The position numbers were made by a program, and so were the translations under genes. From a virus: a stretch of 20,578 nucleotides of DNA. The stretch is from the UHGV virus genome UHGV-1749955. One strand, 5' to 3'. The notes under the pieces are model-generated. The model worked only from the letters and a program-made list of their open reading frames with translations. It had not been told where the DNA came from and did not search any database. Below are positions 3,001-20,578 of the stretch, piece by piece (position 1 is the stretch's first letter; each line of letters begins with the position of its first letter).

Positions 3001-3169
3001 CCTCACTGTCCAGCACCGGCGTACTGTTCAGCAGCACGCTTTTTAATCCGTCCACCGGACCTTCAACCGGCCCTTCGCTGATGGCATCGATCACACTCAG
3101 CAGCTGCGTGGACTTCAGGTTGTCCTTCGCTTCGCGCGGGGTATGCCCCTTACTGCTGCCTTTACCCAT
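1..3169 (-). CDS. J: Tail tip / host-specificity protein J (central tail fibre), N-terminal ~1056 codons; 3' part lies beyond the left window edge
   Basis: ATG at 3169-3167 on the minus strand, with GGAG about 9 nt upstream. My hand translation begins [53 protein letters not shown], which I recognise as lambda J. The frame stays open to position 1; the track lists no minus-strand ORF here, consistent with no stop inside the window. Position after I matches lambda. Confidence 0.92.
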
Positions 3170-3191
3170 TCGTCATGCTCCATAAACGACA

Positions 3192-3211
3192 AAACCGCCC
3201 GCAGGCGGTTT
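3192..3211 (-). terminator. GC-rich stem-loop in the I-J intergenic gap (AAACCGCC-cgca-GGCGGTTT), followed on the minus strand by UGUCGUUU; terminator-like or RNA-stabilising hairpin
   Basis: Perfect 8-bp inverted repeat read directly from the sequence; it lies between the I stop (3230) and the J start (3169). Confidence 0.4.
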
Positions 3212-3229
3212 CACATAAAACATTTTGCA

Positions 3230-3901
3230 TCAGCGACCAATCACCACAACCTGACCACCATCCCCTTCGTCTGCCGTGCTGATCTCCTGAGAAACCACGC
3301 GTGACCCCACGCGCATTTCACCGTACAGAACAGGCAGAACATTGCCCTGGGCAACCATGTTATCCAGTGAGGAGAAATAGGTGTTCTGCTTACCGTTATC
3401 CGTTGTCTGTGTACGGGGAGTTCTGGCTTTCGGTGCCAGCATCTGCGCCACACCACCGAGCACCATACTGGCACCGAGAGAAAACAGGATGCCGGTCATA
3501 CCACCGGCCCCAATGGCTGCCCCCCATGCTGCAAGGGTGGCTCCGGCGGTAAAGAATGATCCGGCAATGGCGGCAGCCCCCAGGACAATCTGGAATACGC
3601 CACCTGACTTGGCCCCGGCGACTCTGGGAACAATATGAATCACAGCGCCATCAGGCAGAGTCTCATGTAACTGCGCCGTTAACCCGGACGTGCTGACGTC
3701 CCGCCCGGCAATCCGTACCTGATACCAGCCGTCGCTCAGTTTCTGACGAAACGCCGGGAGCTGTGTGGCCAGTGCCCGGATGGCTTCAGCCCCCGTTTTC
3801 ACACGAAGGTCGATGCGGCGGCCAAATCGTTGTAAATCCCCGTAAAGGCAGATGCGTGCCATGCCCGGTGACGCCAGAGGGAGTGTGTGCGTCGCTGCCA
3901 T
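3230..3901 (-). CDS. I: Tail tip assembly protein I
   Basis: 223-aa ORF (MAATHTLPLASPGMARICLYGDLQRF...QVVVIGR) recognised as lambda gpI; its 5' end overlaps the 3' end of K by about 100 nt, as in lambda. Confidence 0.93.
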   Translation of the reverse strand: MAATHTLPLASPGMARICLYGDLQRFGRRIDLRVKTGAEAIRALATQLPAFRQKLSDGWYQVRIAGRDVSTSGLTAQLHETLPDGAVIHIVPRVAGAKSGGVFQIVLGAAAIAGSFFTAGATLAAWGAAIGAGGMTGILFSLGASMVLGGVAQMLAPKARTPRTQTTDNGKQNTYFSSLDNMVAQGNVLPVLYGEMRVGSRVVSQEISTADEGDGGQVVVIGR

Positions 3902-4542
3902 TTGTCGGTATACCTCTCTCGTTTGCTCAGTTGTTCAGGAATATGGTGCAGCAGCTCGCCGTCACCACAGTAAATGGCGGCATGATTCGGCACCGATGAA
4001 CCAAAACAGCACAGCAGCACATCGCCCGGCTGCGCCGCTGACAACGGCACCTGATACAGCCCTGTGGCCTCCAGATTATCCAGATAGAGATTCTGACCGT
4101 GACGCCACCAGTCATCCTCGCGATGAAAATCCGGCATCTCAATCCCCGCCAGATGGTAAGCATCCCGGAACAGCGTGTAACAGTCCGTCACCCCGTGCTC
4201 AAAGCGCCGCCCGGTAAGATGTGGCACACAGCGGAACTTGTGAATCGCCCCCCGGCAGACCAGCCACCACGGCAAATCACTCTGCACCTGCAGCCGCCGG
4301 TCGGCCTCACTCAGCCAGGGCAGACCACCGGGGTGGCTGTGGACCAGCGCCACAATCTCACCCTGCATCTCTGCCTGCAGCCAGTCTTCCGGCGACATAC
4401 GGAAATACGCCTCCGGCTCACCGGAGATATTCACGCAGGGGAAATATCTTTCCCCCTCCGGCGTTCTCACCACGAAGCCGCACGACTCCGCTGGCGCACA
4501 TCGCCGGGCGTGCGCCAGAATCGCTGATTCTGTCTCTGTCAT
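3799..4542 (-). CDS. K: Tail tip assembly protein K, long form with MPN/JAMM-type motif (E-x-C-G ... H-S-H-x7-S-x2-D)
   Basis: 247-aa ORF; its C-terminal 199 aa (MSPEDWLQAEMQGEIVALVHSHPGGLPWLSEAD...) match lambda gpK as classically annotated. The ATG at 4542 is 5 nt after the L stop, and the extension carries AESCGF, a plausible JAMM catalytic Glu. Start choice is uncertain (4542 versus internal Met at about 4398). Confidence 0.85.
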   Translation of the reverse strand: MTETESAILAHARRCAPAESCGFVVRTPEGERYFPCVNISGEPEAYFRMSPEDWLQAEMQGEIVALVHSHPGGLPWLSEADRRLQVQSDLPWWLVCRGAIHKFRCVPHLTGRRFEHGVTDCYTLFRDAYHLAGIEMPDFHREDDWWRHGQNLYLDNLEATGLYQVPLSAAQPGDVLLCCFGSSVPNHAAIYCGDGELLHHIPEQLSKRERYTDKWQRRTHSLWRHRAWHASAFTGIYNDLAAASTFV

Positions 4543-4547
4543 GGGAT

Positions 4548-5246
4548 TTACTGCGAAAGTTTGTTAATGGAAAGGAAGCCGCCAAAGTTGCCGACGTTAT
4601 TGCGGAACTTACAACCGCTCAGGCATTTGCTGCATTTATCCTTCGTGATATCGGACGTTGGCTGGTCATATTCATCCGCGACCGCCGGACCGTGATAACC
4701 GCACTCATCGCCGCGATAGGTCCAGGTGCAGGTGTTGGCCAGCATGATACGTCCCGGAAAAACGGCACCGTCCGTTTCCGTCGGCGTGGACAGTACAAAA
4801 GAGGCACTCACCGCGCTCAGTTCGCTGCACTGCTCAATGCGCCAGCGGCTGATCACCTCCTGCTCCGGATCGGCGTCACTGTTTCCGTTGACGAAGTTCA
4901 CCGCATCCAGAAAACGGGCGTAAACCTTACGCCGGACCACCGTTCCGCCGACCAGACTCTGCAGATCTTCCGCCATCCCGGTGACCATACCGTACAGGTT
5001 AGAAACCGTCAGCGTGGGGCGCGTACTGGTGCCTTTGCCATTCAGTTCAAAACCACTCCCCTGAATGGGATACGGCTGATACTGTCGCCCCTGCCAGGTG
5101 ACCGGCTCACCTTTTTCGTTCTGCTCATTACAGAAAAAATAACGTTCTCCACCGACCTCTGTCAGATCGATTTCCCAGAGCACCACCTGGGCTGACTGAG
5201 TGAGGCGTGTCGTCTCATGATGTGTTTCCTGTGGAATATCCTGCAT
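4548..5246 (-). CDS. L: Tail tip protein L
   Basis: 232-aa ORF (MQDIPQETHHETTRLTQSAQVVLWEIDLTEVGGERYFFCNEQNEKGEPVTWQGRQYQPYPIQGSGFELNGKG...) recognised as lambda gpL, with the same length. Confidence 0.93.
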   Translation of the reverse strand: MQDIPQETHHETTRLTQSAQVVLWEIDLTEVGGERYFFCNEQNEKGEPVTWQGRQYQPYPIQGSGFELNGKGTSTRPTLTVSNLYGMVTGMAEDLQSLVGGTVVRRKVYARFLDAVNFVNGNSDADPEQEVISRWRIEQCSELSAVSASFVLSTPTETDGAVFPGRIMLANTCTWTYRGDECGYHGPAVADEYDQPTSDITKDKCSKCLSGCKFRNNVGNFGGFLSINKLSQ

Positions 5247-5255
5247 CAGGGCCTC

Positions 5256-5585
5256 CTATGCCACGACCTGTTCAAAATCTGCCGTTATGGTTACCCACAG
5301 CGCCCCCACGCTTGCCGACCATTTACGACAAACCACCCTGATCGGCTTCCAGTCATAAGGTGGCGTCCACTGAAATGCGCGGACGCCACCGTGCCGTTCC
5401 AGAAAGGCTTTTAAAGATGGGTGTTCACATTTACGAACACGTATCGTCACGCTGTAAGTCGACAACTGGTTATTCAGTCCCGCCGCACGACGCTGTTCAT
5501 AACCATCGCCCAGCTTCACTGTCACCACTTTCGGCTCTGATACCACATTCATATCCGGGCGCACTTTCCAGTGAAACGTCTCCAT
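5256..5585 (-). CDS. M: Tail tip protein M
   Basis: 109-aa ORF (METFHWKVRPDMNVVSEPKVVTVKLGDGYEQRRAAGLNNQ...) recognised as lambda gpM; its start overlaps the H stop. Confidence 0.93.
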   Translation of the reverse strand: METFHWKVRPDMNVVSEPKVVTVKLGDGYEQRRAAGLNNQLSTYSVTIRVRKCEHPSLKAFLERHGGVRAFQWTPPYDWKPIRVVCRKWSASVGALWVTITADFEQVVA

Positions 5586-8146
5586 TACCGATATGCTCCA
5601 CTTAACCGACCACCATCACGGGCCTGCTGTTGCATAAAGTCCGCTGCCGCTTTTTTCCCGAGGTCATAAACCGCCTTCAGGGCAGCCGGACCTATCTGCC
5701 CGTTCGTGCCGTCGTTGTTAATCACCACATGGTTATTCTGCTCAAACGTCCCGGACGCCTGCGACCGGCTGTCTGCCATGCTGCCCGGTGTACCGACATA
5801 ACCGCCGGTGGCATAGCCGCGCATCAGCCGGTAAAGATTCCCCACGCCAATCCGGCTGGTTGCCTCCTTCGTGAAGACAAATTCACCACGGTGAACAATC
5901 CCCGCTGGCTCATATTTGCCGCCGGTTCCCGTAAATCCTCCGGTTGCAAAATGGAATTTCGCCGCAGCGGCCTGAATGGCTGTACCGCCTGACGCGGATG
6001 CGCCGCCACCAACAGCCCCGCCAATGGCGCTGCCGATACTCCCGACAATCCCCACCATTGCCTGCTTAAGCAGAATTTCTGTCATCATGGACAGCACGGA
6101 ACGGGTGAAGCTGCGCCAGTTCTGCTCACTGCCGGTCAGCATCGCCGCCATATTCTGTGCAATACCATCAAAGGTCTGCGTGGCTGCACTTTTTACCTGC
6201 GACATACTGTCCGTGGCGCTCTCTTCCCACTCACTCCAGCCGGACTTCAGGCCTGCCATCCAGCTCCCGCGAAGCTGGTCTTCAGCCGCCCAGGTCTTTT
6301 TCTGCTCTGACATGACGTTATTCAGCGCCAGCGGATTATCGCCATACTGTTCCTTCAGGCGCTGTTCCGTGGCTTCCCGTTCTGCCTGCCGGTCAGTCAG
6401 CCCCCGGCTTTTCGCATCAATGGCGGCCCGTTTTGCCCGTTGCTGCTGTGCGAATTTATCCGCCTGCTGCGCCAGCGCGTTCAGGCGCTCCTGATACGTA
6501 ACCTTGTCGCCAAGTGCAGCCAGCTGGCGTTTGTACTCCAGCGTCTCATCTTTATGCGCCAGCAGGGATTTCTCCTGTGCAGACAGCTGGCGACGTTGCG
6601 CCGCCTCCTCCAGTACCGCGAACTGACTCTCCGCCTTCCACAAATCCCGGCGCTGCTGGCTGATTTTCTCATTTGCTCCGGCATGCTTCTCCAGCGTCCG
6701 GAGTTCTGCCTGAAGCGTCAGCAGGGCAGCATGAGCACTGTCTTCCTGACGATCGCCCGCAGACACCTTCACGCCGGACTGTTTCGGCTTTTTCAGCGTC
6801 GCTTCATAATCCTTTTTCGCCGCCGCCATCAGCGTGTTGTAATCCGCCTGCAGGATTTTCCCGTCTTTCAGTGCCTTGTTCAGTTCTTCCTGACGGGCGG
6901 TATATTTCTCCAGCGGCGTCTGCAGCCGTTCGTAAGCCTTCTGCGCCTCTTCGGTATATTTCAGCCGTGACGCTTCGGTATCGCTCTGCTGCTGCGCATT
7001 TTTGTCCTGTTGACTCTGCTGCTCAGCCTTCTTTCGGGCGGCTTCAAGCGCAAGACGGGCCTTTTCACGATCATCCCAGTAACGCGCCCGCGCTTCATCG
7101 TTAACAAAATAATCATCCTTGCGCAGATTCCAGATGTCGTCTGCTTTCTTAAACGCAGCCTCTGCCTTAATCAGCATCTCCTGCGCGGTATCAGGACGAC
7201 CAATATCCAGCACCGCATCCCACATGGATTTGAATGCCCGCGCTGTCCTGTCTGCCCAGGTCTCCAGCGTGCCCATGTTCTCTTTCAGGCGGCGGGTCTG
7301 GTCATCAAACCCTTTCGTTGCGGCCTCGTTCGCCGCCTGCAATGCCCCGGCTTCATCGCCGGAACGCTGCAACTGAGCAACATACGCAATCTGCTCCGCC
7401 GTCACGTTATGGAACTGACGTGCCATCGCTGTCAGTCCCGACGTCGGGTCTGTGGTCAGCTTCCCGAAGGCTTCAGCGACCTTGTCCACCTCCACGCCGG
7501 ATGCAGAGGAGAAACGCGCCACACTCTGGCTGATGGATGCAATCTGAGCCTCACCGCTTACTCCCGCCTTAACCAGTGCGCTGAGTGACTCGCTGGTCTG
7601 GTTAAACGTCAGCCCTGCCGCCTGCCCGGCTCTGGACAGGACCAGCATACGATCTGCCGTCAGTCCTGCCTGATTACCGGAAAGGACCAGCGTTTTGTTG
7701 AAATCGGACAGGGTTGAGTTGCCCTGATACCAGGCATACGCCAGCGCACCGGTCGCCACCGCCAGCGAGGTGGCCCCGACCATCGGCAGGGTGATCGCAC
7801 CGGCAAGCCCCCGGAACATGGGGATCATCCCGCCGAAGGAGTCCTTCACCTGACCGCCCTGTTGCAGCAGGATCAGCCACGGACTTTGCCCGCCTGCAAG
7901 CTGCGTGGCCACGTCGGTGAACTGTGCAGGCAGCATACGCATGGCGGCTTTATACTGCCCGACGGAAATCCCCGCTTTCTGTGCAGCCAGCGCCTGTCGG
8001 CTCAGCGACTGTTCAACGACTGCCGCTGTTTTTTTCGCATCACTTTCCGTACCGGAAAAATGACGCCTGACTCTGGCCATCTGCTCGTCAAATCTGGCCG
8101 CATCCAGACTTAAATCAACGACCAGATCGCCTACCGGTTCAGCCAT
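5585..8146 (-). CDS. H: Tail tape measure protein H
   Basis: 853-aa ORF, same length as lambda gpH; N-terminus MAEPVGDLVVDLSLDAARFDEQMARV; long coiled-coil-like Ala/Gln/Lys/Glu-rich centre and Gly-rich C-terminal part typical of tape measure proteins; its start overlaps the T stop. Confidence 0.95.
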   Translation of the reverse strand: MAEPVGDLVVDLSLDAARFDEQMARVRRHFSGTESDAKKTAAVVEQSLSRQALAAQKAGISVGQYKAAMRMLPAQFTDVATQLAGGQSPWLILLQQGGQVKDSFGGMIPMFRGLAGAITLPMVGATSLAVATGALAYAWYQGNSTLSDFNKTLVLSGNQAGLTADRMLVLSRAGQAAGLTFNQTSESLSALVKAGVSGEAQIASISQSVARFSSASGVEVDKVAEAFGKLTTDPTSGLTAMARQFHNVTAEQIAYVAQLQRSGDEAGALQAANEAATKGFDDQTRRLKENMGTLETWADRTARAFKSMWDAVLDIGRPDTAQEMLIKAEAAFKKADDIWNLRKDDYFVNDEARARYWDDREKARLALEAARKKAEQQSQQDKNAQQQSDTEASRLKYTEEAQKAYERLQTPLEKYTARQEELNKALKDGKILQADYNTLMAAAKKDYEATLKKPKQSGVKVSAGDRQEDSAHAALLTLQAELRTLEKHAGANEKISQQRRDLWKAESQFAVLEEAAQRRQLSAQEKSLLAHKDETLEYKRQLAALGDKVTYQERLNALAQQADKFAQQQRAKRAAIDAKSRGLTDRQAEREATEQRLKEQYGDNPLALNNVMSEQKKTWAAEDQLRGSWMAGLKSGWSEWEESATDSMSQVKSAATQTFDGIAQNMAAMLTGSEQNWRSFTRSVLSMMTEILLKQAMVGIVGSIGSAIGGAVGGGASASGGTAIQAAAAKFHFATGGFTGTGGKYEPAGIVHRGEFVFTKEATSRIGVGNLYRLMRGYATGGYVGTPGSMADSRSQASGTFEQNNHVVINNDGTNGQIGPAALKAVYDLGKKAAADFMQQQARDGGRLSGAYR

Positions 8147-8573
8147 ACCGGACTCCTCCTGCGATCCCTTCTGATACTGTCATCAGCATTACGTCATCCT
8201 CCGTCATGTCCGCCACATCCGGGGAAGTGGGGATAACTTCATTCCCGTCCGGGCCAAAGCGGACGCCTCCGGCAAGCCCTGCCGCTTTCTGCATCAGCAC
8301 ATCATCTTCAGGCTCTTCGTCAGCCTCGCGCCGGTTCAGCAGACTGAAATCCAGCGGATGCATATCCGGATCGCTGAAAAACAGGCTGAGCACGGTGTAC
8401 GTCAGCCCGGAAAAGTGCATATCCAGCAGAACATCATGAAAATAATGGGTACTGTAAAAGCGGTGCCAGTCGGCATACTCCGTGGATGACATCCCGGCAA
8501 GCATGGCGCGCCAGTCGGGTCGCCCCATCTCACGCGCCAGTTTCAGGGCAAAACTCAGCTCACCGTCGAACAC
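8139..8573 (-). CDS. T: T segment of the tail assembly chaperone, expressed as a G-T fusion by -1 programmed ribosomal frameshift
   Basis: Open frame in the -1 frame relative to G, beginning at the slippery site (the track start is GTG, not an independent start); protein ...FDGELSFALKLAREMGRPDWRAMLAGMSSTEYADWHRFY recognised as lambda gpT. Confidence 0.85.
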   Translation of the reverse strand: MFDGELSFALKLAREMGRPDWRAMLAGMSSTEYADWHRFYSTHYFHDVLLDMHFSGLTYTVLSLFFSDPDMHPLDFSLLNRREADEEPEDDVLMQKAAGLAGGVRFGPDGNEVIPTSPDVADMTEDDVMLMTVSEGIAGGVRYG

Positions 8574-8977
8574 TTTCCCGCAGAAACAGGCTCTGCAGGC
8601 CCGGCGTCCTCTGTCTGTTCAGGGGCATTATTCACCACAAACTCATACATACCGGACAGCCGGTACACCACGTTTTCAGCATGAGAAATTGCCTCCGTGG
8701 GCCAGGTGGTAAGCACTTCCTGCTCAATCTGTTTAACGGCTTCATTCATGGACGGCATCTGCGTCTTCTGCGGATGGTTATGCCACAGGGACATCGCCAC
8801 CAGAAACGCGCCGGTTCTGATGGCGTCTTCCACAGTAAACTTCCGGTTGCTGTCTGACTCCGCCTGTTCTGCCTGCCGTTTCATCAGGGCGAGATGCTCA
8901 ATACGCTGCAGGGCTGACAGTTCAGAAAGCGTGACGGTCACACCGTTATGTTCAAATGATTCGGTTTTCAGGAACAT
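8555..8977 (-). CDS. G: Tail assembly chaperone G
   Basis: 140-aa ORF (MFLKTESFEHNGVTVTLSELSALQRIEHLALMKRQAEQAESD...) recognised as lambda gpG; ends ...AGKCSTVS with the slippery site embedded. Confidence 0.92.
   Translation of the reverse strand: MFLKTESFEHNGVTVTLSELSALQRIEHLALMKRQAEQAESDSNRKFTVEDAIRTGAFLVAMSLWHNHPQKTQMPSMNEAVKQIEQEVLTTWPTEAISHAENVVYRLSGMYEFVVNNAPEQTEDAGPAEPVSAGKCSTVS
8573..8579 (-). other. -1 programmed ribosomal frameshift slippery heptamer G GGA AAG at the end of G
   Basis: Plus strand CTTTCCC at 8573-8579 is GGGAAAG on the minus strand, in G frame as Gly-Lys, 5 codons before the G stop; this matches the known lambda G/GT frameshift site. Confidence 0.8.
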
Positions 8978-8992
8978 CTCTGACTCCCCGGA

Positions 8993-9733
8993 TTAACTGG
9001 CGGTGACGGTGATTTCTGCAACCGCAGCAAGTTCACCATTACCGGATACAACCGGAATGTTGACCTTGCCTGCAGCAACGCCGTTCACGGTGATGGTCAT
9101 ACCACTGACCGACACGGTGGCTTTTGTTTTATCCGCAGACACCGCACGGAAGCTCTTGTCGGTTGCGCCTTCCGGCTGGAATGCCACGGTCAGCGTGGTG
9201 CTCTGCCCTTTCACCACCGAGGTGCTGGCAGGCGTCACGGTCATGCCGGTTGCCGCTGTTACCGTGCTGCGATCTTCTGCCATCGACGGACGTCCCACGT
9301 TGGTGACTTTCACCGTGCGGGTGATCACTTCCTTCGCCGTCACCGCCTTACCGATACTGCTGACCCAGCCACGGAACACATCGACCGTGCCGTTCGGGAA
9401 GCGGATTTTATAGGCACGGGTATCACCTTCATTAAACCACGCCAGCAGCGCCTGCTGCCCCTGCTCTCCGGGCATCCACGCCAGCGTGAAGCTGGTATCT
9501 CCGGCAGATTTCTGCCCCTGCCCGGTCGCAGTCCAGTCCGCATCTTCATCATCGAGATAGCTGTCGTCATAGGACTCAGCGGTCAGTTCGCCGGGCGTCA
9601 GGTCTTTAACTTTTGCCAGACGCGACCAGTCAACGTCTGAAAGCGGGTTCGCATAAGGGTCACCGCTCCCCTTATAAACCCACAGGGTGGTCCCGGCACC
9701 TTTCACCGGCATTACAGGATTTGGTACAGGCAT
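8993..9733 (-). CDS. V: Major tail tube protein V
   Basis: Track ORF is 256 aa; the lambda-length start is the internal Met ([43 protein letters not shown]...), giving 246 aa; C-terminal Ig-like region ...[18 protein letters not shown]. Confidence 0.92.
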
Positions 9734-9740
9734 AGCGTCC

Positions 9741-10136
9741 TCACATTTCATAGGTAATGACATAAGTCAGATCGGCTGAACTCCACAGGCCCGCATCATC
9801 GTCGCGCCGGTAGTCATAGCCACTGGCCACCATACTGGTGATCAAATCTGACAGTGCCGGGATATCGCTCATCACCGGATAAATCCGGGACTCCATCCAC
9901 GCATCCAGCTCTGAATCCGGCACCTGAGCAGGCAGGAAAACTTCAATATGCAGCTCCGCCTGCCAGGTATCGCTGTCCAGCTCTTCGCCCGTGTATTCAG
10001 CGCCGGTGAGATAAACGGCAACTGCCGGAAAATCCGCCTCATCAAAAACAGCGGGGCGACCATCAAAAAACGTCGCCCCGGTGTCATGCTTCTCCAGTGC
10101 ATCCAGTACGGCTGCACGGAGTTCAGTATGTTTCAT
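9741..10136 (-). CDS. U: Tail terminator protein U
   Basis: 131-aa ORF ([54 protein letters not shown]...) recognised as lambda gpU; overlaps Z by 4 nt. Confidence 0.93.
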
Positions 10137-10711
10137 CGCTTTATTACCATTCTCAGTTGATGCTGCAGCGCATAGCCCAGCTCTTTCGGAAGACGTTCAC
10201 GCCGTATCCGTTCAATATTCTGTTTAAACGCCGTGGTCAGCGGCACCGCCATCGGGATTTTCACCACATCAATGGGGTAACGGTTTTTCCCGGCCACACG
10301 CTGCATGACATGCCACCGGCCATTTTTCAGTTGCTGAATAAACGCGCCGGGAATACGACGGTTTCCCACCACAAGCACGCTGCCGCCACCTTTCAGGGCT
10401 GAACGCTGCCCCTTTTTACGACGTCTGCGGCGGGAAAGGACAACCCGCGCGTTACCCAGCTTGATTACGGGCAAATCCCCCCGGTTAACCCTGATTCTGG
10501 CCTGCGGATTTTTGACCGTGGCCCTTTTCAGCCTGGCCCTTTCCTTTACCAGTTTCCGGCGTACCTTTGTCTCACGGGCAACCTGTGCCGCCGACTGCGA
10601 TATCGCGGATGAAGCAACGCGGTTAATGGCCATTGCGGCGGCACCAGGCACCGCCGTTTTGCTGATACGGCTGAGGTTTTCAACGGCCTGCTCAAGACCT
10701 TTTATGGCCAT
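10133..10711 (-). CDS. Z: Tail completion protein Z
   Basis: 192-aa ORF (MAIKGLEQAVENLSRISKTAVPGAAAMAINRVASSAISQ...) recognised as lambda gpZ. Confidence 0.93.
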   Translation of the reverse strand: MAIKGLEQAVENLSRISKTAVPGAAAMAINRVASSAISQSAAQVARETKVRRKLVKERARLKRATVKNPQARIRVNRGDLPVIKLGNARVVLSRRRRRKKGQRSALKGGGSVLVVGNRRIPGAFIQQLKNGRWHVMQRVAGKNRYPIDVVKIPMAVPLTTAFKQNIERIRRERLPKELGYALQHQLRMVIKR

Positions 10712-10722
10712 ACATCCCCCTT

Positions 10723-11076
10723 TCAGCGGCGACGGTTAACGGCAGGCGGTACGCCCCGCCCAAGCCAGAGATGACAGCTTCCGCCATCATCCGGCGTAAC
10801 CCGATCTACCCAGAAGTTTTCCTCACCGATGATCAGCGTGTCTCCACGCCGCAGCTGCCGCACATCATCAGTCCGGACAAACAGGGACGGGCTGGAGCCT
10901 TCAACGCGCACGCCCTGTCCGGCATAGCTGATATTTTCAGGGTCATCAAAAACACCACGTATCACAGCACCGGACTGCTCACCGGATGTCATGGTGGCTG
11001 ACGTTCCCATGTACCCGCGTATCGTTTCATCGGCGCGGGCAATGGCAGCATCGAACAGGTTATCGAAATCAGCCAC
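10723..11076 (-). CDS. FII: Head-tail connector protein FII
   Basis: 117-aa ORF (MADFDNLFDAAIARADETIRGYMGTSATMTSGEQSGAVIRGVFDDPENISYAGQGVRVEGSSPSLFVRTDDV...) recognised as lambda gpFII. Confidence 0.93.
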   Translation of the reverse strand: MADFDNLFDAAIARADETIRGYMGTSATMTSGEQSGAVIRGVFDDPENISYAGQGVRVEGSSPSLFVRTDDVRQLRRGDTLIIGEENFWVDRVTPDDGGSCHLWLGRGVPPAVNRRR

Positions 11077-11087
11077 AGCGCCTCCCG

Positions 11088-11483
11088 TTATTGCATTCTG
11101 GCCAGGCCGCGCTCTGTCATTTCGGCTGCCACACCGGCAGAGACACGAAACGCCGTTCCCGGCAGCACAAATGCCACAGGTTCATCCCGCGTGGCGTGAA
11201 GTGCATCGGTATGCAGCGTCACCAGTGCCACAACCGTGACCAGAGCAGCCGTATCAGTCACGGTATCCGTCTGTGCTGATACCACCTCATTTTCATGTCC
11301 GGTCAGCGCATTTTCCGGGCTGACAGACGAGTCCTGACCGGCTGCGTCATCCGTGTCATCAAGCTCCTCTTCCAGCTCTGCCACACGGAGCGCCAGTTCT
11401 TCTTTCGTCCCCGTCAGGCTGACATCACGGTTCAGTTGCTCACCCAGCACCTGAAGACGGGCAATCAGTTCATCTTTCGTCAT
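11088..11483 (-). CDS. FI: DNA packaging / head assembly protein FI
   Basis: Lambda-like start MTKDELIARLQVLGEQLNRDVSLTGTKEELALRVAELEEELDD at the internal ATG 11483, preceded by GGAGGAG; the track's upstream ATG (11522) lies inside the hairpin after E and is rejected. Confidence 0.9.
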   Translation of the reverse strand: MTKDELIARLQVLGEQLNRDVSLTGTKEELALRVAELEEELDDTDDAAGQDSSVSPENALTGHENEVVSAQTDTVTDTAALVTVVALVTLHTDALHATRDEPVAFVLPGTAFRVSAGVAAEMTERGLARMQ

Positions 11484-11504
11484 GGACTCCTCCACAGAGA
11501 GAAA

Positions 11505-11522
11505 ATGGCCCCGAAGGGCCAT
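11505..11522 (-). terminator. Stem-loop directly after the E stop: ATGGCCC-UUCG-GGGCCAU on the transcript, followed by UUUCUCUCU; terminator-like or mRNA-stabilising hairpin
   Basis: Perfect 7-bp inverted repeat with a UUCG tetraloop, read directly from the sequence; 2 nt downstream of the E stop. Confidence 0.45.
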
Positions 11523-11524
11523 GA

Positions 11525-12550
11525 TTACGCCAGTTGTACGGACACGAACGCATCAGGGTCAGCCAGCAGCATCAGCGGTGCAGACTGAATCATGGTGAAC
11601 TCACGCGCCGGATCGCCGGTGGTCACCCAGTTTTTCGGGTAGCGGGCAGAGGCGTTAATGCCTTCGCGCTGTGCGTCCGCATCCTGAATGCAGCCATAGG
11701 TGCGCAGACCGCGTGCCTGAGTGTTCCCCAGCACCATCGTGTTGTCCGGCAGGAAGTTCTTTTTGACGCCGTTTTCCACGTACTGTCCGGAATACACGAC
11801 GATGGCCACATCGCCATACATCCCCTTATAGGACACCGCTTTGCCCAGGTCTTTTACCGCTGTCTCCAGCTCGGAATGAGAGCCGCGACGGGTATCCAGC
11901 TTCTCCTTGACGGCTTTGAAGGAACGGAACAGCGCCCAGCCTTTCGGATCAAACACGATGATATTCACCACGCCGCTGGCGTTCAGCGCGTAGGCTTCGA
12001 TATCGTCGGTCGGGTCATACGTGGACTTGTCACGCTTGCTCCACTCCGTGCCGCCGGACTGCGTGATGTTGTTCGCCGCACTGCGGCCCATATCCACCTC
12101 AACCGGATCGAAGGCTTCACCGGTCATGGTGTATTTGCCCTTAAGCACGGCAGAAACTGCCTGCATCTCTTCGACCTGAGCAATGGCCAGCTCTTCGTCA
12201 CGCATGTTCTGCATGATGATGCGACGGCGGCGGTAAGCCGGGTCCGCCAGATTCTGCGGATCTTCATCCGGCAGGCGACGCAGGGTCATCTGCGGATTCA
12301 CTTCATGCTTCGGCTTGACATATCCCGGCGTAAATTCAGAGGTGGAGCCGCCACGGGAACGGATAACCTCACCGGAAACAATCGGCGAAACGTACAGCGC
12401 CATGTTTACCAGTCCCGGAATTTGTGAGAGATAGACTTTCTCCGTGGTGAAGGGATAGCTCTCACGGAAAAAGAGACGCAGAAACAGCGGATCAAACTTA
12501 AATTTCTGCTCATTTGCCGCCAGCAGCTGGGCGGTTGTGTACATCGACAT
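11525..12550 (-). CDS. E: Major capsid protein E
   Basis: Lambda-length product (341 aa) starting MSMYTTAQLLAANEQKFKFDPLFLRLFFRESYPFTTEKVYLSQIPGLVNMALYVSPIVSGEVIRSRGG; recognised as lambda gpE; the track's 9-codon upstream extension is rejected. Confidence 0.95.
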   Translation of the reverse strand: MSMYTTAQLLAANEQKFKFDPLFLRLFFRESYPFTTEKVYLSQIPGLVNMALYVSPIVSGEVIRSRGGSTSEFTPGYVKPKHEVNPQMTLRRLPDEDPQNLADPAYRRRRIIMQNMRDEELAIAQVEEMQAVSAVLKGKYTMTGEAFDPVEVDMGRSAANNITQSGGTEWSKRDKSTYDPTDDIEAYALNASGVVNIIVFDPKGWALFRSFKAVKEKLDTRRGSHSELETAVKDLGKAVSYKGMYGDVAIVVYSGQYVENGVKKNFLPDNTMVLGNTQARGLRTYGCIQDADAQREGINASARYPKNWVTTGDPAREFTMIQSAPLMLLADPDAFVSVQLA

Positions 12551-12563
12551 AAAAAAATCCCGT

Positions 12564-12588
12564 AAAAAAAGCCGCACAGGCGGCCTTT
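12564..12588 (-). terminator. Intrinsic-terminator-like hairpin between D and E: GCCGC-cugu-GCGGC followed by UUUUUUU on the minus-strand transcript
   Basis: Plus strand reads aaaaaaaGCCGCacagGCGGC; on the minus strand this is a GC stem followed by seven U, 18 nt after the D stop. Confidence 0.5.
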
Positions 12589-12605
12589 AGTGATGAAGGG
12601 TAAAG

Positions 12606-12938
12606 TTAAACGATGCTGATTGCCGTTCCGGCAAACGCGGTCCGTTTTTTCGTCTCGTCGCTGGCAGCCTCCGGCCAGAGCACATCCTCATAACGGAACG
12701 TGCCGGACTTGTAGAACGTCAGTGTGGTGCTGGTCTGGTCAGCAGCAACTGCAAGAATGCCAACGGCAGCACCGTCGGTGGTGCCATCCCACGCAACCAG
12801 CTTACGGGTGGAGGTGTCCAGCATCAGCGGGGTCATTGCAGGCGCTTTCGCACTCAATCCGCCGGGCGCGGTTGCGGTATGAGCCGGGTCACTGTTGCCC
12901 AGCGGCTGGTAATGGGTAAAGGTTTCTTTGCTCGTCAT
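12606..12938 (-). CDS. D: Head decoration protein D
   Basis: 110-aa product [68 protein letters not shown]... recognised as lambda gpD; the track's 2-codon extension is rejected. Confidence 0.93.
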
Positions 12939-12947
12939 AAACATCCC

Positions 12948-13553
12948 TTACACTGGTGTGTTCAGCAAATCGTTAACGGCATCAGATGCCGGGTTACCTG
13001 CAGCCAGCGGTGCCGGTGCCCCCTGCATCAGACGATCCAGCGCAGTGTCACTGCGCGCCTGTGCACTCTGTGGTGCTGCGGCCAGAATGCGGCGGGCCGT
13101 TTCCACGGTCATACCGGGGGTTTCGGCCAGCACGCATGCCTGTTCTTCGCGTCCGTGAGCCTCCTCACAGTTGAGGATCCCCATAATGCGACTGTTTTCT
13201 GCCGCAACCGCTGCGGTGATCTGCGCGTTCACGTCCGGCTGCGCAGCGCTGGCGTTCTCGCCCTCCGTCGCTTGCACCACGCCAGTAACGTCAGCCTGCG
13301 AAGCAGTGGCTGAAACAGTTGTTGATTGAGTCTCTTTGGTCATTCGCCCTCCTGAGAGACGGGATTTACGTGCATCCAGTGCATCACGCATGACGGTGAT
13401 CGCATCGGTACTGTTCACAAGTTCATCAGCCAGTCCGGCATCAATGGCCTCCTGACCGCTGTACACTGCAGCCTCGGTATCCAGCACAGCCTGCACGGAC
13501 AGGCCGGTATATGCCGACACCTTCTGTGCAAACATCCGGCGGGTTGCATCCAT
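12948..13553 (-). CDS. Nu3: Scaffolding protein Nu3, nested in-frame in the 3' third of C
   Basis: Internal ATG at 13553 in the C frame (MDATRRMFAQKVSAYTGLSVQAVLDTEAAV...), at the position expected from lambda coordinates; shares the C stop. Confidence 0.8.
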   Translation of the reverse strand: MDATRRMFAQKVSAYTGLSVQAVLDTEAAVYSGQEAIDAGLADELVNSTDAITVMRDALDARKSRLSGGRMTKETQSTTVSATASQADVTGVVQATEGENASAAQPDVNAQITAAVAAENSRIMGILNCEEAHGREEQACVLAETPGMTVETARRILAAAPQSAQARSDTALDRLMQGAPAPLAAGNPASDAVNDLLNTPV

Positions 13554-14247
13554 CCGGGACTGCAGTGTTTCCCGGACATCATCCGGTAGATGGCTGTAGG
13601 GGTTGCCATCCACCTTATGGCTGCCGCTGTAAATCAGCGTGATTTCCACGCCCTGTTTCTCCAGCGCAGCACCGTAATTACTGTGAGCCATCATGACGCC
13701 GATGGAGCCTGTCCGGGCGGTCTGCGTGACCAGACGCCGGGAGGCGGCGCTGGCAAGCAGCTGACCTGCACTGCAGTTCATGTCGTTGGCCAGCGCCCAT
13801 ACCGGTTTTATGTCTCGCACACGGGCGATGATGTCAGCACAGTCAAATGCTCCCGCCACCATCCCGCCCGGTGTGTCCATATCCAGCAGAATGCCGTCCA
13901 CCATCGGATCGCTGGCAGCCTGTTGCAGACGGGCGATAATGCCGTTGTAACCGGTCATCCCCGAATACGGCTGCAGCGCCCGCGTCCGGCTGACCAGCGT
14001 GCCGGACACCGGCAGCACGGCGATGCCGTTCATGACCTGATAACTGCGGGCCTGTCGTGGTCCGTCATCATCAACGGATAACGCCAGCGCCGCGGGTGCC
14101 TCTCCGGCAGTCAGGCTGTCGCCGGACACCGCATCCGTCAGGCGGCTGATCCCAAGCTGGCCTGCAAGCGCACAAAAGAAAACCCGCGCATAGGCGGGTT
14201 CAAGCATCAGCGGCTCATTAAAGGCCATGCTGGCAATATGCGGGAGA

Positions 14248-14267
<20 letters not shown>
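12948..14267 (-). CDS. C: Head maturation protease / scaffold fusion protein C (ClpP/S49-like peptidase)
   Basis: 439-codon frame starting at GTG 14267, preceded by GAGGAGGAG and overlapping the end of B by about 20 nt as in lambda; product VTAELRNLPHIASMAFNEPLMLEPAYARVFFCALAGQLGISRLTDAVSGDSL... recognised as lambda gpC; the track start 14402 is an upstream in-frame extension. Confidence 0.9.
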
Positions 14268-17948
<3,681 letters not shown>

Positions 17949-17974
<26 letters not shown>

Positions 17975-18494
17975 TCAGCAACCCCGGTATCAGTTCATCC
18001 AGCGCGGCTGCTTTGTTCATGGCTTTGATGATATCCCGTTTCAGGAAATCAACATGTCGGTTTTCCAGTTCCGGAAAACGCCGCTGCACCGACAGGGGGA
18101 TCCCGTCGAGAATACTGGCAATTTCACCTGCGATCCGCGACAGCACGAAAGTACAGAATGCGGTTTCCACCACTTCAGCGGAGTCTCTGGCATTTTTCAG
18201 CTCCTGTGCGTCGGCCTGCGCACGCGTAAGTCGATGGCGTTCGTACTCAATAGTCCCTGGCTGGAGATCTGTCTCGCTGGCCTGCCGCAGTTCTTCAACT
18301 TCCCGGCGCAGCTTTTCGTTCTCAATTTCAGCATCCCTTTCGGCATACCATTTTATAACGGCGGCAGAGTCATAAAGCACCTCATTACCCTTGCCACCGC
18401 CTCGCAGAACGGGCATTCCCTGTTCCTGCCAGTTCTGAATGGTACGGATACTCGCGCCGAAAATGTCAGCCAGCTGCTTTTTGTTGACTTCCAT
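17949..18494 (-). CDS. Nu1: Terminase small subunit Nu1
   Basis: 181-aa ORF (MEVNKKQLADIFGASIRTIQNWQEQGMPVLRGGGKGNEVLYDSAAVIKWYAERDAE...) recognised as lambda Nu1; it sits next to cosB as expected. Confidence 0.95.
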
Positions 18495-18509
18495 TGTTCA
18501 TTCCACGGA

Positions 18510-18645
18510 CAAAAACAGAGAAAGGAAACGACAGAGGCCAAAAAGCTCGCTTTCAGCACCTGTCGTTTCCTTTCTTTTCAGGGGGTATTTTAAATAAAAA
18601 CATTAAGTTACGACGAAGAAGAACGGAAACGCCTTAAACCGGAAA
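18510..18645. promoter_or_regulatory. cosB: terminase (Nu1) binding elements R1, R2, R3 with an intervening A/T-rich IHF-type site
   Basis: Three copies of the CGTTTCC/GGAAACG core (about 18517-18532, 18569-18584, 18627-18642) in alternating orientation, with taaataaaaacattaagtta between R2 and R3; the layout matches lambda cosB as I recall it. Confidence 0.7.
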
Positions 18646-18671
18646 ATTTTCATAAATAGCGAAAACCCGCG

Positions 18672-18684
18672 AGGTCGCCGCCCC
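18672..18684. other. cosN: 12-nt cohesive-end sequence (reverse complement of GGGCGGCGACCT), junction of phage left and right ends
   Basis: Plus strand AGGTCGCCGCCC followed by cgtaacctgtcggatcaccggaaaggacccg, the reverse complement of the lambda right-end sequence ...GGGTCCTTTCCGGTGATCCGACAGGTTACG. Confidence 0.85.
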
Positions 18685-18882
18685 GTAACCTGTCGGATCA
18701 CCGGAAAGGACCCGTAAAGCGATAATGATTATCATCTACATATCACAACGTGCGTGGAGGCCATCAAACCACGTCAAATAATCAATTATGACGCAGGTAT
18801 CGTATTAATTGATCTGCATCAACTTAACGTAAAAAAAACTTCAGACAATACAAATCAGCAACACAGAATACGGGACAACCTC

Positions 18883-19116
18883 ATGTCAACGAAGAACAGA
18901 ACCCGCAGAACAACAACCCGCAACATCCGCTTTCCTAACCAAATGATTGAACAAATTAACATCGCTCTTGTTCAAAAAGGGTCCGGGAATTTCTCAGCCT
19001 GGGTCATTGAAGCCTGCCGCCGGAGACTGTGCTCAGAAAAAAGAGTTTCGCCTGAAGCAAACAAAGAAAAGAGTGACATTACTGAATTGCTCAGAAAACA
19101 GGTTAGACCAGATTGA
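18883..19116 (+). CDS. Small ribbon-helix-helix (Arc/MetJ/CopG-like) DNA-binding protein, 77 aa; resembles the ynfO/ybcW-type proteins next to cos in E. coli cryptic prophages (assignment from memory)
   Basis: ATG at 18883 (MSTKNRTRRTTTRNIRFPNQMIEQINIALVQKGSGNFSAWVIEACRRRL...): basic N-terminal arm, a beta-strand motif R-N-I-R-F-P, helix A, a G-S-G-N-F-S turn, then helix B, the RHH pattern. The track's GTG start at 18754 has no RBS and is rejected. Confidence 0.6.
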   Translation: MSTKNRTRRTTTRNIRFPNQMIEQINIALVQKGSGNFSAWVIEACRRRLCSEKRVSPEANKEKSDITELLRKQVRPD

Positions 19117-19173
19117 AGCAATCTAGATAATCGTGCAGACTACGCCCCCTCATATCACATGGAAGGTACTACA

Positions 19174-19584
19174 ATGGCTCAGGTTGCCATTTTTAAACAA
19201 ATATTCGATAAAGTGCGAAATAATTTAAACTATCACTGGTTTTATTCTGAACTAAAACGTCACAATGTCTCACATTACATTTACTATTTAGCCACAGAGA
19301 ATATTCATCTTGTTCTTGAAAACGATAATACGGTTTTAATAAAAGGACAGGGTAAGGTTGTAAATGTAAGATTTTCAAAAAATAAATGCCTTATAGAAGC
19401 CACCTTAAAAGGATTCAAATCAGGAGAGTTATCATTTTACGAATACAGGAAAAATCTTGCTACAGCAGGGGTTTTCAGATGGATTACAAATATCCACGAA
19501 AACAAAAGGTATTACTATACCTTTGATAATTCATTACTCTTTACTGAGAACATTCAGAACACTACACAAATATTTCCGCACTAA
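19174..19584 (+). CDS. Hypothetical prophage protein, 136 aa, probably the ydfO/ybcV-like (DUF1398-type) family; function unknown
   Basis: ATG at 19174 preceded by GGAAGG about 7 nt upstream ([67 protein letters not shown]...); the track's ATG at 19159 lacks an RBS. The family assignment is from memory of K-12 Qin/DLP12 genes next to nohA/nohD and needs a database search. Confidence 0.65.
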
Positions 19585-19830
19585 ATCATAACGTCCGGTT
19601 TCTTCCGTGCCAGAACCGGACTCGCTGGCATGATGAAATATGTGTACCCGGTAACCCCGGTGTGCATCGTTTTTGATTATTCCCGCACACTCGCGCAGAA
19701 GGAGTTCCCCGTCGGGCTACGGTCTCTGTTAATACGGGAACACGGCGACGATACAGCGCATGATGTGTCAGGCTTGAATACCTTTATCCTTTAAAAGGGA
19801 TATCAGTTAAGTTATCCCGTGTAGGGTATA

Positions 19831-19866
19831 AGCCATTATCAAAGCCACTCAGTAGCGAATGGCTTT
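19831..19866 (-). terminator. Stem-loop just downstream of the minus-strand membrane-protein ORF (alternative 7-bp stems AGCCATT/AATGGCT or AAAGCCA/TGGCTTT); weak terminator candidate
   Basis: Inverted repeats read directly from the sequence, about 10 nt after the stop at 19876-19878; the U-tract is poor (UUUGAUAAUGG). Confidence 0.3.
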
Positions 19867-19875
19867 TGTAATGGA

Positions 19876-20214
19876 CTATTTAATTAGTGATGCTGCGTAT
19901 TCGATTAGATATAACTTAGGTGCCAACCAGATTTTTAACCATGTCATATTGGTTACTACAGCAATAATAAAACTTACCCACAGAACAAAAACTGCTGCTA
20001 ATGGTAAGATAAGAAAACTAATCTCACCGTTACTTTCCCAAATCATAGTCGGTTTGTATTTAGGCTTTCCCTTCTCCCATGACCATCCTTCATTATCGAA
20101 TATACCAATTTCAACTTTTTGGTACTGTTTTTTCATAAACCAGAAAACCAGCGGGATTGTTGAAATGGCTATTAATGTTTTAATCAGGCTATCAACCATA
20201 TTCCATACCAGCAA
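19876..20214 (-). CDS. Small predicted two-transmembrane membrane protein (107-112 aa), function unknown
   Basis: ORF MLVWNMVDSLIKTLIAISTIPLVFWFMKKQYQKVEIGIFDNEGWSWEKGKPKYKPTMIWESNGEISFLILPLAAVFVLWVSFIIAVVTNMTWLKIWLAPK...: two hydrophobic helices separated by a Lys/Glu-rich loop. Sits in AT-rich DNA; the track start is TTG at 20214 and the first ATG is at 20199. A fully overlapping plus-strand ORF (19859-20218) makes the strand assignment uncertain. Confidence 0.45.
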   Translation of the reverse strand: MLVWNMVDSLIKTLIAISTIPLVFWFMKKQYQKVEIGIFDNEGWSWEKGKPKYKPTMIWESNGEISFLILPLAAVFVLWVSFIIAVVTNMTWLKIWLAPKLYLIEYAASLIK

Positions 20215-20324
20215 CTGATGAACAACATCCGGAATCTGAGCCTGACTGAATGCAATGGCGAATCAATTCCATCGCTGGCCTTCTTCAATAAATCAACAAG
20301 AATTTTATTTGCTTCTTCTTGCAT
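20184..20324 (-). CDS. Small ORF (46 aa from ATG 20324; track gives 61 aa from TTG 20369) overlapping the 5' end of the membrane-protein ORF in another frame
   Basis: MQEEANKILVDLLKKASDGIDSPLHSVRLRFRMLFISCWYGIWLIA; AGGA about 7 nt upstream of ATG 20324; its stop at 20184-20186 overlaps the next ORF by about 30 nt. It may be a coupled small gene or the front half of a frameshifted gene. Confidence 0.3.
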   Translation of the reverse strand: MQEEANKILVDLLKKASDGIDSPLHSVRLRFRMLFISCWYGIWLIA

Positions 20325-20578
20325 GTTTATATCCTGTAAGTTGTAAGCCTGTTCGAGAAAAATAAACAACTACGAGAGACAGAAAAAATATCTCAGGCTC
20401 TCTTTCTATAAGCTTTTAGTTGAGGATGTTCTGCAAAACAAAACTGGTTAGTTATGTAACTGCTTCCGGAATACAACAGCCGACGTGCTACAACGTAAAA
20501 TTCGCTTGATTGTGGCAGTTGAGGAAACAGACTTGCATTTCTCAACATCATCAATAATGACCACATCCGGTACAGGAA

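Follow-up and report, generated by a model that had tools for sequence, protein, structure and literature searches.

The interval to the right of cos (positions 18685-20578 of the window, by which we mean the whole 20,578-nt stretch of virus genome UHGV-1749955) is very probably an ordinary mosaic accessory interval of a lambda-like phage, lying between cos and the lysis genes and composed of independent modules. A preliminary description of this DNA had the sequence departing from lambda at cos itself; that reading is wrong, and what is seen instead is ordinary lambdoid mosaicism, in which the swapped-in cargo is limited to the last ~700 bases and one of its two genes is broken. As read here, the modules follow one another as a lambda right end with ynfO, a DUF1398 gene, a linker with a terminator-like hairpin, and cargo in the slot that bor occupies in lambda. 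The individual features are listed below.

18672-18683: cosN, 12-nt cohesive end; exact match AGGTCGCCGCCC, the reverse complement of lambda 1-12
18684-19045: lambda right-end block (lambda 48502-48141); 362 bp, no gaps, 96.4%, 13 mismatches
18883-19116, plus strand: ynfO, YlcI/YnfO family (DUF3950), 77 aa; Pfam PF13132 DUF3950, 72.8 bits
19046-19099: 54-bp stretch in the gap between the lambda blocks, replacing 613 bp with lambdap79/ybcW of lambda and DLP12
19174-19584, plus strand: DUF1398 gene (ybcV/ydfO/lambdap78 homolog), 136 aa; Pfam PF07166, 147 bits
19585-19874: non-coding linker, ~290 bp, of which 19653-19874 (222 bp) is common to many lambdoid elements
19841-19869, plus strand: hairpin followed by a T-run, terminator-like, AAAGCCA...TGGCTTTTGT, as read from the sequence
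19876-20324, minus strand: gene for a 149-aa two-helix membrane protein (phrog_3054), frameshifted; intact homolog against phrog_3054, E=8e-59
20448-20578, minus strand: 3' end (last ~43 codons) of a 286-aa orphan gene (phrog_2571), frame ...VVIIDDVEKCKSVSSTATIKRILRCSTSAVVFRKQLHN*, cut by the window end

Homology to the lambda right end

From J to cos the match to lambda that had been described holds: lambda 18002-1 and window 673-18683 run collinearly at 96.9%, with Nu1 on the minus strand at 17949-18494. Position 18684 corresponds to lambda 48502. To the right of cos, only the first ~35 bp had been said to match lambda, a claim that is contradicted both by the gapless 362-bp block and by a second block, 19100-19760 against lambda 47527-46868 (661 bp, 82.5%). 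The ~35 bp corresponds to the distance to the first SNP (18720), and the next mismatch is at 18836. With these two blocks aligned, ~54% of 18685-20578 is lambda-homologous, which falls short of the end-to-end alignment with lambda 46.6-48.5 kb that the preliminary description had named as the finding that would overturn it. Non-homology is nonetheless confined to 19046-19099 and 19761-20578, with nothing aligned beyond 19760. Base composition does drop as had been reported, from 57.3% GC in 1-18684 to 39.1% in 18685-20578, but lambda 46428-48502 is equally low at 40.1%, and as such the AT-richness is no departure from lambda. The restriction sites to which attention had been drawn are present (XbaI at 19122-19127, HindIII at 20410-20415), and neither occurs in lambda 45000-48502. 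The 54-bp stretch between the blocks is flanked by a 14-nt direct repeat, with copies at 19030-19043 and 19088-19101. Rfam matches in 18400-20578 (E<=1) were limited to chance microRNA matches on the cosB inverted repeat at 18519-18575 and were set aside; a tRNA scan found none.

The two genes that lie within or overlap this homologous DNA both belong to established families. YnfO scores above the cut-offs of Pfam PF13132 (25 bits) and NCBIfam NF041551 (35.2 bits; cut-off 30), is identical to the Qin YnfO of K-12 at 75 of 77 residues (97%), and is 87% identical to lambda/DLP12 YlcI across the 62 aa that they have in common, with a different C-terminus; judged by eye from its sequence it may be a ribbon-helix-helix protein, and a role as a regulator is suspected. 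The DUF1398 protein, whose gene is inside the second lambda block and has an alternative ATG at 19159 that would extend it to 141 aa, covers profile positions 1-119 of 119 in PF07166 (cut-off 22 bits), matches the solved YdfO structure (PDB 2HH8) at E=1.4e-69, and is 75-77% identical to lambda p78, YbcV and YdfO. Judged by sequence, the pair (18883-19584) represents the conserved counterparts of the ylcI-like ORF and lambdap78 of lambda, ylcI and ybcV of DLP12, and ynfO and ydfO of Qin. Both genes point away from cos, opposite to late transcription, and are on the strand of bor and lambdap78 in lambda. A type II toxin-antitoxin pair would call for an obligatory adjacent, co-oriented couple with a DNA-binding antitoxin. 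Genes of the two types are adjacent and co-oriented in the window, in Qin and in the related element L004; in lambda and DLP12 ylcI and the DUF1398 gene are parted by an oppositely oriented ybcW, and the relatives L003 and L005 have ylcI without a DUF1398 gene. A search of the literature turned up no functional study of either DUF1398/YbcV/YdfO or ynfO/ylcI/DUF3950.

The linker and its putative crossover

The linker gives an RNA fold z-score of -2.8 on both strands, and the hairpin at 19841-19869 is present in both minimum-free-energy folds. A 54-aa ORF within the linker (19630-19794) is annotated in some phage records; it is interrupted in lambda, DLP12, L003 and L005, and we do not regard it as a gene. 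In E. coli LH50-c the 222-bp segment borders the cassette (the 149-aa and 286-aa genes) on both sides. Among metagenome contigs, distinct variants of the hairpin are each paired with a distinct downstream sequence, such that the variant travels with the right-hand cargo. At informative sites between 19655 and 19822 the window agrees with L004 at 12 of 12, and at 19851-19859 it agrees with the cassette-bearing phage PhiR46_1. Of the 41 gut-metagenome contigs that contain the left-type 55-mer, none has the window's hairpin variant or the cassette.

Given the distribution of these informative sites, the most likely origin of the joint would be homologous recombination within the common 222-bp linker, with a crossover at 19823-19850. 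The left side would derive from a chromosomal lambda-like prophage whose slot was empty, and the right side from a parent that carried the cassette, of a type mostly encountered as N15-like linear phage-plasmids. A narrower crossover interval, 19822-19832, was rejected since empty-site sequences, too, often have the G at 19832. The arrangement of ynfO, DUF1398 gene and cassette was absent from 5,426 complete E. coli genomes, 50,697 phage records, IMG/VR, GTDB representative genomes and the 41 related metagenome contigs; as the exact arrangement was found in no collection searched, the recombinant is uncorroborated. Searches with exact 32-, 55- and 100-mers likewise gave no match for the frameshift in the 149-aa gene or for the full recombinant joint, and the region is not discussed in a study of Chi-hotspot lambdoid phages (PMC12315714).

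A combination unique across every collection searched is also what might be expected had an assembler fused two elements of one genome, an N15-like phage-plasmid and a lambda-like prophage of the chromosome, at their common 222-bp linker. The switch in parentage falls inside a repeat common to both element types, identity to phage-plasmid and prophage cassettes is 99.7-99.9% in the right part, against 98% to chromosomal prophages in the left part, and the frameshift is likewise private to the window. However, lambdoid mosaics normally form by homologous recombination at such common linkers, natural genomes with related joints exist (ylcI, linker and cassette; also linker copies flanking the cassette), and the 222-bp repeat can be spanned by many read types. 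We therefore consider an assembly chimera unlikely and favor homologous recombination within the linker as the source of the joint.

The accessory slot and its cargo

The segment from Rz to cos is a variable accessory slot with lineage-specific cargo from 19875 onward. The preliminary description had recognized the locus as one that carries morons; the variable slot and the lineage-specific cargo stand, but the cargo does not follow directly from cos, as it starts only at 19875. Between the DUF1398 gene and Rz we find at least five alternative contents, and the variants of the slot include the following.

Lambda: bor-p78-p79
DLP12: borD-ybcV-ybcW-ylcI
Qin: ynfO-ydfO-gnsB...cspI
E. coli 2021CK-00607: empty (98% to the window up to 19874)
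Other prophages: KilA-N cargo
PhiR46_1, LH50-c, Z1323CEC0001, VTB96815v and the protelomerase/SopAB plasmid pEC21Z151-46K: cassette with or without a DUF4406 gene

An insertion is apparent on comparison with the empty-site L004, which runs from linker to a small ORF to Rz and from which the window diverges at 19875. The reported absence of a bor-like gene is borne out by tblastn with lambda Bor, which gave no homolog at E<=10 in the window (which ends before Rz) and none at E<=1e-3 in the relatives L002-L005, which span the interval to Rz. Both cargo genes are on the minus strand, co-oriented with the late operon, and absent from lambda. Consensus scans for a promoter or terminator belonging to the cargo scored no higher than in shuffled sequence, although promoters of non-consensus type are possible.

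Compared with PhiR46_1 and LH50-c, the 149-aa gene of the window lacks 1 bp after 20259 (GG to G). The 32-mer containing this frameshift is absent from genome_contigs and viral_contigs, and as this private lesion inactivates the gene, its function has probably been lost in the window; the frameshift could also be a sequencing error. The phrog_3054 family to which the gene belongs comprises 488 clusters across Enterobacteriaceae, and virulent coliphages, Vibrio and Pseudomonas have more distant homologs. The copy in one Vibrio phage is opposite in strand to the structural genes and looks like a self-expressed moron. The AlphaFold2 model of the protein has four helices and is weak (pLDDT 66); in BFVD, Foldseek found no match to this model below E=1.4, and none came from profile searching of the PDB. 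Family members are found in at least three settings, namely the early PL operon by sieB, the late Rz-to-cos interval, and the early regions of N4-like and rV5-like virulent phages; homologs are found alone after N in the PL operon and beside sieB in P22-like prophages. Copies at other genome positions are homologous over the ORF alone (20324-19877), from start codon to stop codon. This ORF-exact transfer, the invariable placement in a lytic transcription unit and the copies in virulent phages together argue for a role in lytic growth, and the protein would most likely act at the inner membrane, for example in phage exclusion or in the modulation of membrane or lysis.

It might instead be proposed that the cargo consists of classical lysogenic-conversion morons like bor, expressed from a promoter of their own in the prophage and altering the surface or fitness of the host. 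The AT-rich composition, the location in the bor slot of lambda and DLP12, and the presence of a membrane protein among the products would all suit such a role. We judge it improbable, however, in that both genes have the late-operon orientation, unlike bor, the promoter and terminator signals do not rise above chance, and homologs occur in virulent phages, which have no lysogenic state; furthermore, because the homology of the 149-aa gene stops at its start and stop codons, no private regulatory flanks travel with it. A function of the membrane protein in lytic growth is thus preferred.

The second cargo protein matches phrog_2571 at E=7e-164 and is a true orphan, confined to Escherichia: it forms one full-length cluster among 1.84 billion representatives, and HMMER against the same set returned fragments of its own family with no remote homologs. 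Its AlphaFold2 model is of low quality (pLDDT 46; moderate confidence at residues 197-282 only), and Foldseek of this model against the PDB listed thymidine kinase, FlaI and PilT, with a best E of 2.7e-3 and thus none at E<=0.001. Profile matches to P4 and Wzc were marginal (E=0.3-0.9), and the protein reads PRSGMT where the GK[ST] of a Walker A motif (GxxxxGK[ST]) would lie. Pfam and NCBIfam gave nothing for the two cargo proteins, and PADLOC-DB 2.0 gave no significant match for any of the interval's four proteins, with matches at chance level only (E=0.025 and 0.049). In 28 of 5,426 genomes (at least 80% of the cassette query covered) the two genes stand side by side in the same orientation, separated by a 123-bp spacer. 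A 276-aa homolog of the 286-aa protein is found alone between Rz and Nu1; as each gene is found without the other, they are no obligate pair.

The adjacency in these 28 genomes, together with the location in a known accessory slot, the marginal P-loop NTPase fold matches of the C-terminal domain of the 286-aa protein, and the 149-aa homologs that adjoin sieB in P22-like prophages, might be taken to indicate a two-gene anti-phage system (abortive infection or exclusion) in which a degenerate P-loop-like sensor is coupled to a membrane effector. We find this very unlikely, given that either gene occurs without the other, that the PADLOC matches are marginal and the 286-aa model poor, that SGMT stands at the position of the Walker A lysine, that virulent phages commonly carry members of the membrane-protein family, and that the 149-aa gene is frameshifted in the window. 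As a tentative and rather speculative possibility, phrog_3054 may be an uncharacterised, widespread phage membrane effector of lytic growth, such as a new superinfection-exclusion or anti-defence protein; the window's copy would then have come from an N15-like phage-plasmid by recombination and have been inactivated recently. The interval as a whole is textbook lambdoid mosaicism, and correcting the false departure from lambda has little significance beyond bookkeeping; the lead worth keeping is this membrane-protein family.

Comparison with known elements

The right end of lambda (46.4-48.5 kb, with bor, lambdap78, lambdap79, the ylcI-like ORF and cosQ) occupies the same position as the interval described here, at 40% GC versus 39%, and the likeness extends through the DUF1398 gene and the intergenic DNA downstream of it (82.5%). 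The window differs from lambda in having no lambdap79/ybcW (54 bp versus 613 bp) and no bor, in the long C-terminus of its 77-aa YnfO, and in the two unrelated minus-strand genes in the bor slot. DLP12 (rzpD-borD-ybcV-ybcW-ylcI-nohD) has the same interval and the same families (YlcI, DUF1398), with 176 bp of the linker conserved, but is of lambda-type organisation, with ybcW and borD present and a short, 64-aa YlcI.

Qin (nohA-ynfO-ydfO-[gnsB ynfN ynfR ynfQ cspI]-rzpQ) shares the layout of the window, namely a Nu1 homolog, a cos region, ynfO (234 nt), a DUF1398 gene (411 nt), minus-strand cargo and Rz, and its ynfO and ydfO are adjacent, as they are in the window. Its cargo is gnsB...cspI instead of the 149-aa and 286-aa genes, however, its YdfO is only 75% identical, and the 290-bp linker is missing from it (blastn, no match). 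PhiR46_1 (PV340565) and N15-like phage-plasmids such as pEC21Z151-46K match window 19653-20578 at 98.4-99.9% and share its 149-aa and 286-aa genes, after which come a DUF4406 gene and Rz. Unlike the window, these elements are without ynfO and the DUF1398 gene, the linker following directly at ~50 bp past cos, and their 149-aa gene is intact.

Lambda homology right of cos

What the lambdoid phage carries at 18685-20578 is a mosaic accessory interval of an ordinary kind, and its arrangement is a new combination of already known modules. The window runs backward along a lambda-like phage genome, lambda 18002-1 aligning collinearly to window 673-18683 at 96.9%. Given this reversal, and since window 18684 is the counterpart of lambda 48502, the interval corresponds to the rightmost part of the lambda map, from cos to the lysis genes.

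Features in and beside the interval
17949-18494, minus strand: Nu1
18672-18683: 12-nt cosN cohesive end, exact reverse complement of lambda 1-12
18883-19116, plus strand: ynfO (YlcI/YnfO family, 77 aa; Pfam DUF3950 at 72.8 bits, NCBIfam NF041551 passed)
19046-19099: 54-bp stretch in place of the 613 bp with lambdap79/ybcW of lambda and DLP12
19174-19584, plus strand: DUF1398 gene (Pfam 147 bits; YdfO structure 2HH8, E=1.4e-69)
19585-19874: non-coding linker
19841-19869: terminator-like hairpin with T-run, at the linker end
19876-20324, minus strand: 149-aa membrane-protein gene (phrog_3054), modeled with four helices, two of them hydrophobic
20448-20578, minus strand: last ~43 codons of the 286-aa protein gene (phrog_2571), cut at the window end

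The preliminary description held that only ~35 bp right of cos match lambda, an impression evidently created by a single SNP at 18720, the first mismatch; the next lies only at 18836. Homology is in fact gapless across 18684-19045 (lambda 48502-48141; 96.4%, 13 mismatches) and resumes in a second block at 19100-19760 (lambda 47527-46868; 82.5%), such that the claimed loss of lambda homology was mistaken and the boundary of departure was misplaced by about 1.2 kb. The noted drop into AT-rich sequence is real (GC falls from 57.3% to 39.1%), but it is no departure from lambda, as lambda 46428-48502 is itself 40.1% GC. The XbaI (19122-19127) and HindIII (20410-20415) sites are present as described, neither occurring in lambda 45000-48502, and the absence of bor was confirmed by tblastn with lambda Bor, which found no match in the window.

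Between Nu1 and cos lies a 25-nt inverted repeat (18519-18575), a region which we take to be cosB with the Nu1-binding R sites of lambda. The only Rfam matches were to this repeat; they are microRNA models scoring below threshold, and therefore chance. At the opposite end of the window, the 3' end of gene J (1-672, minus strand; the receptor-binding part) is divergent from lambda, with only a 75.5% match over 140-503 and the rest unaligned.

A variable slot and a probable crossover before the linker hairpin

Comparison of Rz-to-cos synteny bore out the general idea that this interval holds lineage-specific cargo: from the DUF1398 gene (or linker) to Rz, the slot varies in content across elements. 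The genes ynfO and DUF1398 are conserved residents rather than cargo.

Slot content in lambdoid elements
lambda, DLP12: bor
Qin: gnsB-ynfN-ynfR-ynfQ-cspI
E. coli 2021CK-00607: 50-codon ORF only (shares 98% identity with the window through 19874)
PhiR49_1, E. coli Ecol_448: KilA-N gene and 85-codon gene
PhiR46_1, three E. coli chromosomes, 46-kb plasmid pEC21Z151-46K: 149-aa and 286-aa genes (the cassette), usually then a DUF4406 gene

None of the four relatives examined, cassette-type or empty-site, has bor. The cassette itself is rare: 59 of the 5,426 complete E. coli genomes have it, and 10 of its 63 places are on N15-like plasmids. One of the tabulated carriers, pEC21Z151-46K, has genes for a protelomerase, a large RepA and SopAB, which mark it as an N15-like linear phage-plasmid, one with lambda-like structural genes. 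E. coli "plasmid" records of 46-50 kb are more generally such elements (protelomerase, CyRepA1, SopAB; e.g. L023, NZ_CP101200.1, 46,173 bp); their head, tail and cos region are near lambda at the DNA level, and they are the main home of the cassette. The DUF4406 gene, which lies past the window end, separates the 286-aa gene from Rz in cassette-bearing elements (L002 5935-6246, L005 6183-6494, L023 17420-17731) and matches nucleoside 2-deoxyribosyltransferase weakly.

No record in the phage and E. coli collections reached 80% coverage of 18685-20578. Chromosomal prophages match the window up to 19874 and cassette elements match it from 19653, the overlap being a 222-bp segment common to both, within which informative sites change parentage: in the window, all 12 such sites over 19655-19822 have the state of the empty-site relative, and all from 19851 onward that of PhiR46_1. 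The simplest reading of these sites would be a single homologous crossover between 19823 and 19850, immediately before the hairpin. The left-type 55-mer (19786-19840) was found in 41 gut-metagenome contigs, none of which bears the window's hairpin variant or cassette. Searches of the GTDB representative genomes and of IMG/VR recovered neither the exact joint (as a 100-mer) nor the frameshift in the 149-aa gene (as a 32-mer), which leaves some room for an assembly chimera across the common repeat; we regard such an artifact as unlikely, and favor the crossover.

Copies of the linker flank the cassette on both sides in E. coli LH50-c, which shows the segment to be a recurrent recombination substrate. 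The fold of the whole linker is more stable than that of shuffled sequences on both strands (z about -2.8), and every hairpin variant is tied to its own single downstream cargo type. At least three sequence variants of this hairpin exist (window 19841-19869 and the matching position in gut-metagenome contigs L034-L074), the stem being kept in each. A 54-codon ORF in the linker was rejected as a gene, being interrupted in lambda, DLP12 and two further relatives.

The two cargo families

One of the cargo genes is broken in the window: the 149-aa gene lacks one G after 20259, truncating the frame after 22 native residues. The two genes are probably not a two-gene system. The 286-aa protein is an orphan, with 15 clusters, all Escherichia, in a word-indexed search, and one full-length cluster plus fragments in a full HMMER scan of 1.84 billion representatives; a 276-aa homolog stands between Rz and Nu1 with no adjoining membrane-protein gene. 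The 149-aa family comprises 488 clusters, from Escherichia, Shigella, Salmonella, Cronobacter, Citrobacter, Klebsiella, Pantoea and others. Homologs without the 286-aa gene occupy the PL operon of P22-like and other lambdoid prophages, directly after N and beside sieB, and in a Klebsiella prophage one comes after a KilA-N gene, in the stretch that separates lysis from terminase genes. Virulent N4-like and rV5-like phages carry more distant homologs (27-46% identity), as do many Vibrio phages. Such loci, with the homolog at 3501-3900 in each, include Salmonella phage FSL SP-058 (L019), Escherichia phage muut (L020) and Vibrio phage 120E34-1 (L021); in one Vibrio phage the gene stands alone on the opposite strand, inserted between tail-completion and head-closure genes.

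Compared with the PL-operon copies (gene at 5001-5450 or 4001-4450 in loci L006, L010 and L027-L029), the window gene has 80-89% nucleotide identity, and homology extends exactly from ATG to stop codon. Given these bounds, the gene moves as an ORF-sized module: the mobile unit is the ORF alone, apparently carrying neither a promoter nor a terminator of its own.

PADLOC returned no significant match for the ynfO, DUF1398, 149-aa or 286-aa proteins. The 286-aa model is poor (pLDDT 46) with a moderately confident C-terminal domain, whose P-loop-like matches on that model are marginal only (best E=2.7e-3); the protein has no Walker A lysine. As the 149-aa gene runs in the direction of lytic transcription units in almost every context, and homologs occur in phages without a lysogenic state, we infer that its product may act at the inner membrane in lytic growth, through competitor exclusion or modulation of the membrane or lysis.

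Resident genes and their known counterparts

Both ynfO and the DUF1398 gene are oriented against the late operon, as is bor. Our literature search on DUF1398/YbcV/YdfO and ynfO/ylcI/DUF3950 found no functional study; judged by eye, YnfO resembles a small DNA-binding protein of the ribbon-helix-helix type. A 14-nt direct repeat (TGCTCAGAAAA[A/C]AG; 19030-19043 and 19088-19101) flanks the 54-bp stretch, and could be a deletion/insertion footprint or chance. Window YnfO matches K-12 Qin YnfO at 75 of 77 residues; against the 64-aa lambda and DLP12 YlcI, its identity is 87% as far as the homology break. The DUF1398 protein is 75-77% identical to lambdap78, YbcV and YdfO, and the adjacency of the two genes is that of ynfO and ydfO in Qin.
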